Positions 5,625-23,840 of a stretch of DNA of 64,000 nucleotides are shown here, piece by piece. The notes beneath the pieces were generated by a model, which ran no database searches, was not told the origin of the DNA, and saw nothing but the letters and a program-made list of their open reading frames with translations. A program made the position numbers and the translations under genes. This DNA is from Tricharina praecox (lineage: Eukaryota): contig NW_026250416.1 of NCBI RefSeq assembly GCF_024521635.1, positions 62,001 to 126,000 on the forward strand. The letters run 5' to 3'. Within the stretch, counting starts at the first letter, position 1. Every line of letters starts with the position of its first letter.

Positions 5625-8539
5625 CTATGAAGTTTTCCTTCCTCTTTCCTTCCTCTTTCCTTCTTCCGTCTCCTTCACTAGGCTATCGTTTTTTGCATGT
5701 GATACTTTTGACGATCAATCTTATCCTATTTCATTTTGCTCAGTGTTTTTTTTGCGGATGCTGGCTGGCGGGTGGAGTAAGGGCTGCGTGCGGAGAGAGG
5801 CGACGAAGTGCATCATAGATGTAGATGGGCGGCTTTAGCAAATTCATGATCGACATTGTGCGCGGGCGGTTTATCTCTACCCCACAGCCTTCATAACGAT
5901 TATTTATTGGATGCCCTCCTACCTACTCCACTGGTGTGCACTATTGTTTGACGTGTGGTCCCATCGGCCATGGTGACTGGAACGTGCGCTTTCATCCCAT
6001 AATTACAGGCCAATAGGCGGTTGACCGCAATGCAGCCTGCCTGCCTGCCGTTGGATAGTTTGGGGTATGTACTCTACATACATGTTGGGACGAAACTTGA
6101 GATGAACTGTTTTCTGCACTCCAGAGTCCATGTATCATACATAGAGTACTGGGGACTTCAACTGTAACCGGGAATACACAAAGTTAAAGCTGAAGTCGAA
6201 GCAACCACCGCTCCGACCCCCGACTCCCGACTCCCGAGGGGATCTATATCTATATCTATATCTACTGGTGATATTATAACACGGCCGCTGGTGCCGCCGG
6301 AAGGGATACGGTACTGTATTAACCCCAACATGACACGGCACGGCAGGGCAGGCCAGGTGGGATATGTATCTGCACTCTGCACTCTGCACTCTGCACAATG
6401 CGCTCTGCGCTCACAGTTGGGAATTGGGGAGAGGGCCGATCTGAGATCGCAAGTCCCATCGCTGTCGATAGTTAGCTGATTATATGTGGGCTCGGCGGGG
6501 TGTGTGTGTGGGGGGGGGGGCGGATATCATGTTTGGACTCTGGACTCTGGAGGGCCAACACGTTTTGATTAGGGACCGGAAAACGGCTGGTGTTTTTCAG
6601 CCCTGGAGTCTCTGCGTGAGACGTGAGGCGTGAGGCGTGAGACTCGGACTCGGGTGTGGCGGAGCAATGGGGGAGCTGGCGGCAAGTGGGAACTTGGAAC
6701 TTGGAACTTGGAAGTGAAGGAGGAGGACCGATCGGCGGGAGGAAGCGGATGTGGTTAGTACATGGCGGGCATGGCGGGGTAGACTACTGAGCGAGGAGGG
6801 GGTTTCTTCTTCTTCTTCTTCTTGTCGCTTGACCATCATCTACAGAATAGACGATCAACTACTATCTCCTCCTTCTCCTTGTGTGTTCTCCCGAGTCCTT
6901 CTCTCGACCCGCCGCTTTCCGGCCTGGAGAGGCATTGGCACCCTCGCAGAAGCGGTATCTTCGGTACCTACTTGTGGGATATCGCTGGGCATCGGTCTTT
7001 GGGCAATGGGGGCTCGCTTTCTGGTATGTATCATATCGTTTGCGGACATCTTCCGAGGGACCCGGACCGGCAACCAATACAAATCCTGGGTGATGGATGA
7101 GGTTGACGGATCCTCGAATCGGGCCCCGTGGGCTGGACCGCTGGACATCGGGAGGGACGGAAGTTTTCACAAACGACGAGCTCGCTGTCCAGAGGCGTCG
7201 TCGAACTGTGGAGTCCTGGAGCTTTGGGACATTTGGCACCGGGCAATGGAATCGAGGACCGCTAGAGTACTAGGTAAGTACCGGTACTCGCCTGATCGTT
7301 GCCGGATGTACCGTGCGAGCTTTGACATGTTTTTGATTAGGTCGAAAGTGAGGGTGAAGGTTTGTAAGTCGGAACCTCGGGCGTGCCGTCTAGTACTCCG
7401 ACCAGAGGAATGTGGACAAACATCAAGATTCCACTCCGGGCATTCAGACACCGGTCGATCCAGAGAGGAAGGATACATCATAGTACCCTAGAGTACATCT
7501 CGGCTCTAGACTCTTTTCAGAGCAACGGGCATCCTCGAGCTCCCAACACACCAGCTCGGCAAACAACCGAAACACAGGCACCAAGCAAGACATTCGGTTC
7601 AGCTCAGGATGCTCCGTCGAGCTGCATCAGCTATCAAAAGCAGCAGGATCGGCAACGATGCGAAATCAAAGCTGTCAATTGATCCCAAAAAGCAATTCTC
7701 TGTGGCTTGCCCGTACCCCGCACTGATATTGCGAGGTTGGTGTGGTACCTACATCTCCGCTCTGCACTCCAGCACGGGATAGATTAAATAGAGAGATACA
7801 CACCTTCCCTCGAGAAGGAGAAAGAAGATGAAGAAGAAGGAAAAGAAGGATTGGACTGCATTTTAACTCTTTGCCTCTTCTTTTGGCTGCCGATTACGGT
7901 ACCGGTCGGAGCAGAGTCATCGTTCGTTCCACGCTTCGTACACATCTTAAGCTTCCACCGCTCCCGATTCCCGACACCTAACATCTCGAAGCTCGACTTC
8001 AAAATCGACGTTCAGCCATCTTGCCGATTGCCTTCCAGATGCCCAGCAAGATTCTAAACCTCCAGAGATTTGTCTCCTAATGGCTCCGGACGACACAATC
8101 ATGGAATATCACTCATTCGGCACATTTTCGTGTTACACTACGTCACAGTTTTAGTGGGTAGGGTGTTGGGGTTCATGGCGACTCCACGCAGCAACGCATC
8201 AACAAACGAATCAGCTTAACGAGATGTGTATATAAAAAAATCGTACTCCCCCCCCCCCCACCCACAGATGCAATAGCTTTAAAGGTGGGAAGGGGAAGTG
8301 CAGCACACGTCCAGCTCCCCTTCAGCTTACCTAAACTTCAATAGCGTAGGCAGCTTCGACTGTTTTTTTTTACAGCTTTCGTCTCATAGATATCGAGCTA
8401 TCCAGCTATCCGCCAGCCTGCTCCGCCCTCCGTCCTTGCAGGACCATCGTCCTCGTCCTACTCCTTCGTCCTTACAAACGGCCCCCAGCCTGAACTCCGA
8501 TCCCATCCTCCCAAAGCCTTACCGCCCAATCTCCACACC

Positions 8540-20656: not shown

Positions 20657-23447
20657 ATGGCGTCTCACTACGCTGCCTCTAAGAGACCCGAGAACGTCGA
20701 AGGCGAGGACGTTGTCGGAGAGAACGCTATCGGCGGGAACGGAGTCGGCGATTCGGAGTCGCTCTCTAGTTCTAACGACCAGAGCGTTGGTTCTTTTGAA
20801 TCCGAGGAAACGATTGTCAAGTCGGACGACACCAGCCAGCCGCAAGCTAGCCTCTCTGTTCGTCGCGGTCACGGCTCTCGACCTATATCCGTAAGTTGTC
20901 CTTCCTTCCTGTTTATCTTCCTGGTTATCCACCATGACAATCGATCGTATGATGGTGAACTCATTGATCATCTGTCCCCAACACATGAGACATGATGTAT
21001 CAATCGTTCCTTTTTGCTTTCGCTCATCTCCAACATTTAAAACATTTGCTGACTACTTGGACCTTACATTGAATGGGACCATGCGCTCCATCATGAGAGA
21101 CATGGCAGTGGCGGATGACATGTCTTCCGTTGTCGCTACTGGAAGAGCGTACTGACTGATCGTTTCTCCTTGACATCCACGATGATCTCGACCAGCTTGT
21201 CGTTCCTAAAGCATGCGGTTTGCATCCAATGCTATTAGCACATAGCTGGTCAGATACACATCAGTCAAGGTAGACTCATCGGTCAACAGCATTCCACTCG
21301 CTCAGTTTTCTAGCCAACGAGACATTAACATCGCTACTGCCTCTCTCTCGTGATGAGCGTGATAAATGTTCCATTCAATGGTTATGGTCCTTCTTGAACA
21401 GGAATATTTGAGTGGATTCAGCAAGGCTGCCATCAAAGACGGCGAAAACTGTGTCAACATTGGTGACTCTTCGGGATCCGGATATAACCGCTTCGAGCAA
21501 CAGAATGAGTACCGTCTTGATCTCCCCCAGCAGACGATGCAGTCTTTTGAAACTATTCTTCCGAGGCTAGATGAATGTAAGTTTTTCCTTTCTCCCCCTC
21601 GGTGGCTGTGGCTCGATCTAACATCTCCAACAGACTTCCATCTGCCCGCTGGTGAACATTTGTTCATCTTGCCAGACGGCGGTGCAATCCACTTTATCGC
21701 TGGAGACAGGCCTCAGGAGTTCTTCGGAAGTGAGGCTTGCGTTGTTCGCAACCACCGGTTCGAGGGCCTCTACTTCCTGAGGACCAACCTCATCATGAAG
21801 ATGGAGGTTCTTCGGCTGATTGCTGGCAACTTTGTTCGCAACGGCTCCGTTGAGAACCGCAACTTCATCTACCTATCGACGCAGGCGCATGTAGGAGAGC
21901 GTGTGGTTGGTATCAACTGCGGCTTGTATGTCGGAGATACCATGGATCCTCTGCCTATCTTCTTCTCGCCTCTGGGACTGGAGATGCACAGCAAGAGCAT
22001 GTTGATGTGCCACTCTCCTTGGGCCACGAACACTATGCGCGAAATAGGTGTCGAGCACAGGCGTCTCGCGGCTCCTCCAATGCTCGCGGCTCCTCCAATG
22101 CCTCAGGGCCCTCCAATGCTCCAGGGCCCTCCAATGCTCCAGGGCCCTCCAATGCTCCAGGGCCCTCCAATGCTCCAGGGCCCTCCAATGCTCCAGGGCC
22201 CTCCAATGCTCACTAGAACCACAAGCGCTGCTTCCGGTTCAAAGTAAGTTGCAGTCATCCGGATCATTCACGACTATTCTTAAGAGTCGAACTAATTCTG
22301 TTCTACAGTGGATTCAATGGAGCGGGTTATGCCAGTCAAGTTCAGATGATGAACAATGCTGGCGCTGCTTCTAGATCAAAGTATGTTGCAGCCGTCCAGA
22401 TCGTTCTCAACTATTCTTAAGAGTCGAACTAATTCTGTTCTATAGTGGAATCAATGGAGCGGGTTATGCCGGTCACGTTCAGGCTATGAACAATGCTGCT
22501 CACGCTCAGGCGATGCACAATGCTGCTCACGTTCAGGCGATGAACAATGCCAGTGCTGGTGCCTCCGAGCCCCATTCGGTGAGTCTCTTCACATACCTTA
22601 GTGGCTCTTCTGTGCCACGGAAACAATGTTGCTTGAGTTATTCCGATGGAATTCTAAATCCTTTCATCAACTTCAATTCTTTCTCGACTAACTGACTGCT
22701 CTCGTATAGATTCTCAAGAGGGAAAACGTATCTGCTCCGGCCACTCCGGCCACCCCTCGGCAGTCCTTCGCATTAGTTGCTCCCAGGACCCCTTCTTCCG
22801 GCAGGAGAGTTATGTTCGAACCGACTACGCCCACTACGCCCACGACCCCAAACACCCCTAGGACTCCGGTTAGGCCTTACACATCGGCTGCCGCGTTCCA
22901 TCCATCCGTTCCCGGTGGAAGTGGTCGCCAGAGTGTTCCTCTTACTCCTCGGCATGCCAATAAGAAGACCAACAATCTCTACAAGACTGAGATGTGCCGC
23001 AACTGGAGTGAGGTTGGAGAGTGCAAGTATGGAAAGTCTTGCCAGTTCGCTCACGGAGCCCAGGAGCTTCGTGTTGTCCAGCGCCATGGCCAGTGGAAAA
23101 CTAAGACTTGCCTGGCATGGGTGAATGGAGGATGCACGTACGGTTCCCGCTGCTGCTACGCTCGTAAGTCCTCGAGGTCTCTCCCCCCATAGTGGCTTAA
23201 ATTTCTAACACATCGATATTTAGATGAGTTCCTTCCCGAGCGGAGGGCTGATACTGCTGCTCAGTCCTACGGTGCCACGACTCGTTGGAGGGAGTCTGGG
23301 GCTTCTGGAGCTCTTGGATTCAGGACTTCCAGGCCTTTGGCCCCGCCGATCCGCAGGATTACCAACACTAACGCTGTTCCTCCCCGTGGTGTCTCTCGCT
23401 TCGCGGACCTTTTCTTGGGTCCCGAGAGTGGAGATGCCACTCGCTAA
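20657..23447 (+). CDS. Tandem CCCH zinc-finger RNA-binding protein (TIS11/tristetraprolin/Cth1-2/Zfs1 family) with unrecognised N-terminal domain, 7 exons
   Basis: LYKTEMC-X8-C-X5-C-X3-H, an 18-residue linker, then WKTKTC-X7-C-X5-C-X3-H (last His split by intron 23164-23223). Introns 20891-21401, 21577-21633, 22244-22308, 22381-22445 and 22579-22709 keep one frame. Stop TAA 23445-23447. Confidence 0.85.
21059..21390 (+). other. Long imperfect rod-like RNA hairpin inside intron 1 of the CCCH gene
   Basis: At least 8 nested complementary blocks with nearly constant coordinate sums. Examples: 21067-79/21368-80, 21089-100/21344-55, 21104-14/21331-41, 21168-74/21264-70, 21190-97/21244-51. Confidence 0.85.
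22071..22211 (+). repeat. Coding 18-bp minisatellite, ~8 units, encoding (A/G)PPML(Q/A)
   Basis: Tandem GGCCCTCCAATGCTCCAG with A-P-P-M-L-A variants at the 5' end. Confidence 0.95.
22225..22497 (+). repeat. 137-bp tandem duplication comprising an intron plus exon
   Basis: Introns 22244-22308 and 22381-22445 are both 65 nt and near-identical. Both are followed by TGGAWTCAATGGAGCGGGTTATGCC. Confidence 0.93.
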
Positions 23448-23840
23448 TCGCGGATCTATGGCGTGGGTGATTCAATTTCGTATCTTGAACTCTCTCTCGG
23501 GAGAGTATAAGCTGACGACGTTCTAATCACCTACCCCCCAAAAAAAGAGACGGGAATATACCTAATCCCATATATCCTAGTCTCAACTTTCCTTTCCTGC
23601 CCCCTTTCCCCTTTGCCCTTTTCCCTTCCCGTGCCCCTTCCCCCTTCCCCCTAAAATTCGATCTGTCCTTCTTGGCATTTCTTTTCCGATGCCCTCTACG
23701 ACATCTCCTTTCTGATTTCACATAGCTCTAGTAAACATTGGGGATTTTACATGTTTTCTGTTTTTTTTCTTCTCATTTGTCTGATGGTTTCCTCCCGAAG
23801 GACCATTGTTGTGATGTTTTGTTCTGTTTTTTTTTCTTTT

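Follow-up and report, generated by a model that had tools for sequence, protein, structure and literature searches.

How could an intron be spliced if its branch site lies almost 350 nucleotides (nt) from its acceptor? This question is raised by a CCCH zinc-finger gene of Tricharina praecox, which we analyzed in a stretch of 64,000 nt (contig NW_026250416.1, positions 62,001 to 126,000, forward strand). We call this stretch the window and give positions within it unless a related locus is named. Intron 1 of the CCCH gene (20891..21401, + strand) is 511 nt long and ends in CAG, as described in an earlier first-pass annotation; it starts with GTAAGT and leaves an in-frame phase-0 junction. That annotation had also called the other introns short, and those that we checked further along the CCCH gene are 57, 67, and 65 nt. 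Between the putative branch site of intron 1 and its acceptor lies a 332-nt segment that is predicted to fold back on itself as a rod. The reading that we favor, and regard as probable, places intron 1 of this Tricharina-type CCCH gene among the structured distant-branch-point introns.

Folding of 21040-21401 with RNAfold gave a single unbranched rod of -142.8 kcal/mol that takes up the 332 nt at 21059-21390. The first-pass annotation had listed eight helices here, and all are present, give or take one pair, in the minimum free energy (MFE) structure. The proposed hairpin also held up against 100 dinucleotide shuffles of the same segment (-96.1 ± 4.45 kcal/mol; z -10.5), none of which was as stable. 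The reverse strand folds as well (-135.9 kcal/mol, z -6.2), because the element is an inverted repeat. With 125 pairs in the MFE structure of 21040-21401, the rod is a near-continuous imperfect duplex of ~122 base pairs (bp). Its 5′ arm (21059..21221, + strand) begins with the basal helix strand GGACC (21059-63), and its 3′ arm (21222..21390, + strand) ends in GGTCC (21386-90), with the apex at ~21222. A sliding scan of the + strand divided the 64 kb into 531 overlapping segments of 360 nt, of which the hairpin was the top GC-corrected fold outlier. The low-GC segments that came next in degree of structure, at 23800 (z -2.4) and 23200 (z -2.1), are downstream of the CCCH exon. An Rfam search of the rod returned no matches at E ≤ 1. 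A small nucleolar RNA was rejected as a candidate, as inspection by eye found no C/D box pair in the right order.

We looked for the orthologous intron in relatives. When metagenome contigs were scanned with an alignment of six rows, five loci emerged (L001-L005). Since loci within each group are nearly identical, they and the window represent three independent lineages: the window and two others of the Pyronemataceae, L001/L005 and L002-L004. An SHMT gene, 100% identical to that of Tricharina praecox, is just upstream of the CCCH gene in the window, and the same pair, SHMT upstream and CCCH gene downstream, is present in L001, L002, L004, and L005; L003, which has a shorter upstream flank, contains the CCCH gene only. 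The SHMT sequences of L001/L005 are 93% identical to Tricharina praecox, and those of L002/L004 are 95% identical to Trichophaea hybrida. For L001, one blastn alignment spans window positions 20819 to 22067, running through intron 1, where the branch motif, the GGACC/GGTCC basal helix, and the surroundings of the acceptor are conserved. With L002, blastn matched nothing across intron 1 of the window. The L002 intron nevertheless has the same order of parts: donor, TTTGCTGAT, GGGACC, ~320 nt, GGTCC, 11 nt, and AG. A six-sequence MAFFT alignment misaligns the L002 clade, and the RNAalifold consensus derived from it is meaningless.

A rod is present at the equivalent intron site in all six sequences of the three lineages, and the GGACC/GGTCC basal helix is invariant in all of them. 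The L001 rod folds with a z of -5.5, and that of L002, with its flanks, reaches -139.4 kcal/mol (z -7.1). Folds of the whole intron still contain the rod (window, z -7.1; L002, z -5.3). Its dimensions are also similar between lineages. In the window, L001, and L002, the intron is 511, 491, and 513 nt and the rod 332, 333, and 320 nt, while 6, 6, and 7 nt separate the branch A from the first paired base and 11 nt in each case separate the last paired base from the acceptor G.

The first-pass annotation had placed a branch motif about 350 nt from the acceptor, with no good site adjoining the acceptor. In agreement, the putative branch site GCTGAC (21048..21053, + strand; branch A at 21052) is 349 nt from the acceptor G, and the only other CTRAY sequences of the window intron, apart from the one at 21049, are within the rod, 242-246 nt from the acceptor; the nearest YTRAY is at 73 nt. 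In L001, the CTRAY closest to the acceptor is 144 nt away. The heptamer TTGCTGA is invariant in the three lineages, with GCTGAC, GCTGAC, and GCTGAT as the motifs of the window, L001, and L002. Beyond the rod, an 11-nt segment (21391..21401, + strand) carries the acceptor CAG at 21399-21401. With the rod looped out, the distance from branch A to acceptor G in the window becomes 6 + 11 = 17 nt, the value that the first-pass annotation had given. The effective distance is 17, 17, and 18 nt in the window, L001, and L002, compared to 12-13 nt in ordinary introns of the same gene. The interval between branch A and acceptor contains 18, 12, and 15 other AGs in the three lineages, all of which are, in silico, inside the rod.

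Between the window and L001, pairing in the rod has outlasted sequence. With gaps excluded, the two are 75% identical in the rod, 75% in the 5′ segment of intron 1 that leads from the donor to the branch site (20897..21047, + strand), 79% in intron 2, 73% in exon 2, and 83% in exon 3. Within the rod, identity is 0.655 in the basal sector, 0.545 in the middle, 0.772 in the apical sector, and 0.571 at the tip. Since the rod is no more similar than ordinary introns (0.75-0.79), it is the pairing that has been kept, rather than the sequence. The two rods differ by 77 substitutions and ~49 nt of indels. When these changes were placed at random, the folds were -102.6 ± 6.8 or -92.6 ± 6.3 kcal/mol, depending on direction, versus -140.1 and -141.3 kcal/mol for the real rods, and none of 150 simulations reached the real folds in either direction. 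Simulations between the window and L002 gave -92 to -96 kcal/mol versus the real -134.9 and -141.3 kcal/mol (0 of 80 each).

The individual pairs show the same tendency. Of 120 comparable pairs in the window-only structure projected on L001, 66 are unchanged, 27 have changed yet still pair, and 27 are unpaired; shuffling the substitutions gave 34.0 ± 2.8 for unpaired pairs. Both sides have changed in 11 pairs; shuffling gave 5.3 ± 1.7 such double changes (0 of 500 reached 11), and sliding the partners gave 1-5. Of these 11 pairs, 8 are in the two basal helices. Such counts, from two sequences, are modest, and the random-placement simulations are the stronger statement. Three polymorphisms within rods open no helix: 21089 C>T in the window is at a bulge or turns a C-G pair into U·G, 21243 T>A in the window falls in an internal loop (both from contigs of depth <5), and an A>G change in L004 turns A-U into G·U. 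The core of the first-pass annotation, a structure that exists at the RNA level exactly between branch site and acceptor, brings their distance to a normal value, masks AGs, and is no decaying DNA repeat, is supported by comparison, through orthologous rods, a maintained fold, and fixed linkers.

The first-pass annotation had argued for selection on RNA from an excess of G·U wobbles in the window. This argument stood for one lineage only. The window leans in the proposed direction (6-8 G·U versus 2-3 A·C), but not significantly: its arms, aligned to each other, show 8 G·U, 2 A·C, and 7 transversion-type mismatches (6, 3, and 5 with an alternative apex) and 48 gap columns (48-50, depending on the alignment), and its MFE structure has 7 G·U among 125 pairs. 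L001 shows no such excess (6 versus 8). In L002, 15 G·U stand against 1 A·C (p 0.0005), and Watson-Crick complementarity between the arms is only 72%. The L002 sense strand reaches -134.9 kcal/mol with 18 G·U pairs, compared to -83.4 kcal/mol for the antisense. As modeled, the strand asymmetry of L002 indicates constraint on RNA rather than DNA. Arm-to-arm gene conversion would keep Watson-Crick pairing on both strands, and thus the L002 asymmetry does not look like conversion.

We also considered the earlier suggestion that the rod is a thermo-switch. In each of the three lineages, equilibrium predictions put the pairing probability of the basal helix at ≥0.9 between 15 and 65°C. On this model, an equilibrium thermo-switch is unlikely, and we dropped the idea.

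Coding evidence bears on the junction itself. Exon 1 (20657..20890, + strand) comprises 78 codons from an ATG at 20657, in the context CAAAACATGGC, and ends in phase 0; exon 2 is 21402..21576 (+ strand). L001 keeps the end of the exon-1 peptide (...RRGHGPHPIS), and in the alignment the pattern RRGHG, any two residues, PIS, followed across the junction by an identical EYLSGFSK..., flanks intron 1 in both the window and L001. By codon position, the two differ at 3/4/11 sites in the last 72 nt of exon 1, 13/9/25 in exon 2, and 14/11/49 in exon 3. Intron 1 is in phase 0 with canonical donor and acceptor in all three lineages. Translation of the retained intron would run for 34 codons in the window, 17 in L001, and 16 in L002 before an in-frame stop. 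Judging from these patterns, exons 1 and 2 are coding, and intron 1 would be spliced at the borders 20891 and 21401.

A mechanism that accommodates these data is as follows. The candidate branch site at 21048, a conserved UGCUGAC, would be bound by U2 through base pairing. The 332 nt that follow the branch site would fold co-transcriptionally into one long imperfect duplex. With this duplex looped out, the acceptor CAG would be effectively 17 nt, not 349 nt, from the branch A, and the duplex would bury the 18 other AGs that precede the acceptor. The rod would then be required for the intron-1 splice. The gene would depend on this splice, since a retained intron 1 brings a stop after 34 codons, and mutations that open the rod would be selected against. 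Such selection would explain why the fold, its length, and the linkers of 6 and 11 nt are kept in different genera by compensatory change while the sequence drifts.

Several points weigh against this interpretation. The 20890/21402 junction and the branch point are predicted from sequence, and a search with the exon-1 protein found no annotated protein with exon 1 (0 of 74 candidates scored). Three independent lineages are too few for R-scape-type statistics, and when the window structure is projected on L001, 27 of the 120 comparable pairs come apart. Strand-specific evidence comes from one lineage: the G·U to A·C ratios are 6:3 in the window and 6:8 in L001, and the sense and antisense folds are nearly equal in both (window, -141.3/-134.2 kcal/mol; L001, -140.1/-142.7 kcal/mol). 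Even in L002, the flanking intron is T-rich (G+T 0.60), which could inflate G·U. L002 also has a second GCTGAT (5755-5760), in the basal 3′ arm and 22 nt from the acceptor, and this proximal site may be usable if the basal helix breathes. Lastly, a pure spacer could shrink from its tip, yet the length of the rod is constant, which hints at something more.

This last point speaks for one alternative, that the main job of the rod is to be a long nuclear double-stranded RNA (dsRNA), as a Dicer/RNase III substrate or a target of dsRNA-binding proteins, with its position between branch site and acceptor secondary. The rod could then be a small-RNA precursor, or its cleavage could compete with splicing to set the level of CCCH mRNA. 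The near-continuous duplex of ~122 bp, a length of 320-333 nt that is constant across genera though loss of the tip would be harmless to a spacer, and a 19-nt block (21156-21174) that is invariant between the window and L001 all speak for this role. However, the 19-mer was not recovered in L002, the identities of the rod sectors are no higher than those of ordinary introns, and Rfam contributes no match. Moreover, the conserved linkers of 6-7 and 11 nt are predicted by a splicing role and would be needless for a Dicer substrate. We consider this alternative unlikely. Intronic Dicer substrates (of the hairpin-RNA, microRNA-like RNA [milRNA], or mirtron type) resemble the rod in being long intronic hairpins with bulges. 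In length, however, it far exceeds the usual milRNA precursors of fungi, and it differs from this class in having one short invariant block, in two lineages only.

A related reading, which we find rather unlikely, takes the rod to be not just a neutralized spacer but a conserved module of nuclear dsRNA that sets the output of a tristetraprolin-like RNA-binding protein. Dicer/RNase III cleavage or a dsRNA-binding protein, for example, might compete with the second splicing step, with small RNAs as by-products. The constant length of 320-333 nt is a hint in this direction, since a mere spacer would not need it.

A second alternative keeps the intron but moves the branch point: the true site would be a degenerate one within or just 3′ of the rod, which would be unwound or bypassed, and the structure would have a separate role. 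Fungal branch motifs can be degenerate, as this alternative requires. The proximal L002 GCTGAT, 22 nt from the acceptor, also speaks for it. S. pombe is reported to use protein factors for branchpoint-distant exons (PMC9508853). In opposition, no CTRAY occurs within 242 nt of the acceptor in the window or within 144 nt in L001. The distal TTGCTGA and its linker are invariant in three lineages, against 55-79% identity elsewhere in the intron. The proximal motif was found in the Trichophaea-like lineage only and lies in a helix with a pairing probability of ≥0.9. We therefore give this alternative little credence. As a separate observation, the L002 GCTGAT at 5755-5760 and the GGTTTGGTCC that follows it resemble a direct repeat of the distal GCTGATTGGTTGGGACC.

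The rod could also be an object at the DNA level that has no role as RNA: either what remains of a miniature inverted-repeat transposable element (MITE) or of a foldback transposon, or an inverted duplication of local origin, its palindrome perhaps preserved by gene conversion between the arms. It shares with MITEs and foldback transposons the form of an inverted repeat of a few hundred bases in a non-coding part of a gene, and in the window and L001 it folds on both strands. Unlike these elements, it has no copies in the DNA searched, no target-site duplication, no presence/absence variation among the relatives compared, and compensatory upkeep. A search of 117,126 nt, the window included, turned up no further copy of the three rods, and the rod flanks (...ACTT/GGACC and GGTCC/TTCT..., with the slash marking the rod border) share no direct repeat longer than 2 nt. 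The only public runs listed with this DNA are four soil-metagenome DNA runs of one study, which consist of low-depth contigs, and no joints that skip the rod, or other empty-site form, were present in them. In run X1, one contig bridges 20788-21900, and thus the rod and its flanks, with no differences, which is weak evidence. With no second copy in the limited 117,126 nt and an orthologous site in three lineages, the rod is not the multicopy foldback transposon that the first-pass annotation had considered as a way for its proposal to fail. The fold has been kept far beyond random change, and arm-to-arm conversion would not give L002 arms that are 72% complementary with an antisense fold of -83.4 kcal/mol. 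An origin at the DNA level as the whole explanation is thus very improbable.

A local duplication may still have left a trace. A 13-nt exact match joins window 21129-21141, in the 5′ arm of the rod, to L002 5407-5419, which is before the branch site and outside the rod (blastn-short E 0.003). In local alignment, the 5′ part of the L002 intron scored 30 against the 5′ arm of the window, versus a null of 15.6 ± 2.1 (0 of 300 shuffles). This pair stood out among 36 comparisons, in both orientations (0 of 300 each); the 5′ part of the window against the 3′ arm of L002 was marginal (p = 0.010), and nearly all other comparisons were not significant. The 13-nt match, which counts in favor of a DNA-level element insofar as it hints at local duplication, may be a trace of how the rod originated.

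Finally, the gene model could be wrong, with exon 1 outside the CCCH gene and the rod in a promoter or 5′ untranslated region. In its favor, protein searches found homologues of exons 1 and 2 nowhere beyond these loci, and an ATG at 21366 opens the exon-2 frame. This alternative is scarcely tenable given that L001 conserves the peptide ends flanking the junction, both exons show third-position bias, and three lineages share phase 0 with canonical donor and acceptor.

How does a structured distant-branch-point intron compare with known systems? The nearest are the distant-branch-point introns of Saccharomycotina. Gahura et al. (2011; PMC3239191) disrupted and restored stems in yeast COF1 and UBC13 and thereby found that the stem brings the branch site closer to the acceptor and masks AGs. 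The same study states that an unstructured interval is tolerated to ~55-60 nt, while ~120 nt in ACT1 abolishes splicing, that natural branch-acceptor maxima are 166 nt in Saccharomyces, 471 nt in C. glabrata, and 185 nt in K. lactis, and that conservation of an intron's position, outside Saccharomyces sensu stricto, did not entail a conserved length from the branch point to the 3′ splice site. Probing in vivo, according to Rangan et al. (2025; PMC12350175), found "downstream stems" in 21 of 88 yeast introns. Intron 1 has the same anatomy as these introns, a stable stem between branch site and acceptor, here predicted from sequence, and its putative distance of 349 nt greatly exceeds what yeast tolerates without structure. 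It differs from these introns in that the 349-nt interval is filled by one almost continuous rod of ~122 bp, that the host is a filamentous Pezizomycete with other introns of ~55-67 nt, and that rod length and linkers are conserved across genera. We would thus assign intron 1 to a known class, with its large size, its Pezizomycete host, and the cross-genus conservation of length and linkers as the new features.

Two other systems are more distant. The nearest fungal "hairpin introns" are the symmetrical stwintrons and sister introns of Hypoxylaceae (Fekete et al. 2021; PMC8469720). Their terminal inverted repeats of 45-55 nt span the whole intron, a further intron is nested inside, and copies of similar sequence are found in large numbers at new positions. 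In contrast, the repeat in intron 1 is confined to the interval from branch site to acceptor, the 117,126 nt contain no second copy, and the site is old and orthologous. A conserved internal donor is also missing: the only GTNNGT within intron 1 of the window is the 5′ splice site, and no internal GTNNGT is common to the lineages, which led us to reject a nested intron of the stwintron type. In fish introns with AC and GT repeats (Lin et al. 2016; PMC4691745), secondary structure is reported to replace linear closeness of splicing signals. There, simple repeats bridge the intron ends, whereas here a rod of complex sequence bridges branch site and acceptor. The literature that we searched held no paper on structure-assisted 3′ splice-site selection in filamentous ascomycetes.

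The part of intron 1 from donor to branch site is 136-170 nt, which is long for the CCCH gene. In whole-intron folds, it contains a smaller local hairpin at ~20961-21007 in the window and at ~5313-5350 in L002, which may, as modeled, be a zipper-type stem.

In the rest of the host gene, intron 2 (21577..21633, + strand) is 57 nt, with 12 nt from its CTAAC branch site to the acceptor G, and its L001 counterpart is 54 nt. Exon 3 (21634..22241, + strand) encodes a domain conserved in Pezizales (GDRPQEFFG...CLVRNHRF) and, after it, a GPPMLQ repeat. We searched exhaustively with HMMER, using the non-repetitive part of exons 2-3 as the query, and found 20 homologues of the exon-3 domain (21636-22067) among 1.84 billion representatives, six of them with E<1e-30. 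All 20 align from about the start of exon 3 onward, the named carriers are from Pezizales (Tuber, Pyronema), and the domain matches no Pfam family. In the Tuber brumale homologue, the domain is fused to a tandem CCCH finger in the same architecture, and a Pyronema homologue carries its source's label "Similar to Tristetraprolin." The first finger of the tandem pair in the window (22980..23057, + strand) matches PF00642 with E 1.8e-12, at residues 91-116 of the open reading frame (ORF) 22710-23192. The fingers of the host protein fit C-x8-C-x5-C-x3-H, as in Tristetraprolin-type tandem CCCH proteins. The description of the protein as an mRNA-decay factor, as in the first-pass annotation, draws on two things only, the CCCH Pfam match and the source label of that one homologue, and is best read as provisional.

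We noted other features of the gene. The GPPMLQ units form a coding tandem repeat in exon 3 (22074-22211; 18-nt unit, 7.7 copies, 93% matches). This repeat drew spurious matches to fish LIM-domain proteins, and a protein search with exons 2-3 that included it returned only low-complexity matches to the repeat itself. At 22225-22498, a 137-nt unit that consists of an exon end and a whole intron occurs twice (87% matches). Introns 3 and 4 (67 and 65 nt) have near-identical CTAAT branch regions. From its sequence organization, 22225-22498 is a tandem exon-intron duplication within the CCCH gene. The ORF with the CCCH finger ends ...CCYARKSS* at 23170-23192; its codons imply ...GCAC followed by a GTAAGT-type donor, and the last His of the second finger is probably across one more intron.

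Nearly all that is established on structure-assisted 3′ splice-site selection comes from budding yeasts. This locus offers a very clean natural case, with one rod, invariant linkers, and three diverged orthologues that show compensatory evolution. It also carries a warning for annotation, because a 349-nt gap between branch site and acceptor together with a long hairpin would normally be mistaken for a mis-modeled intron or a transposon. The product of the host gene probably regulates mRNAs. If the rod does feed RNA interference or is cleaved, splicing geometry would be linked to dsRNA surveillance.

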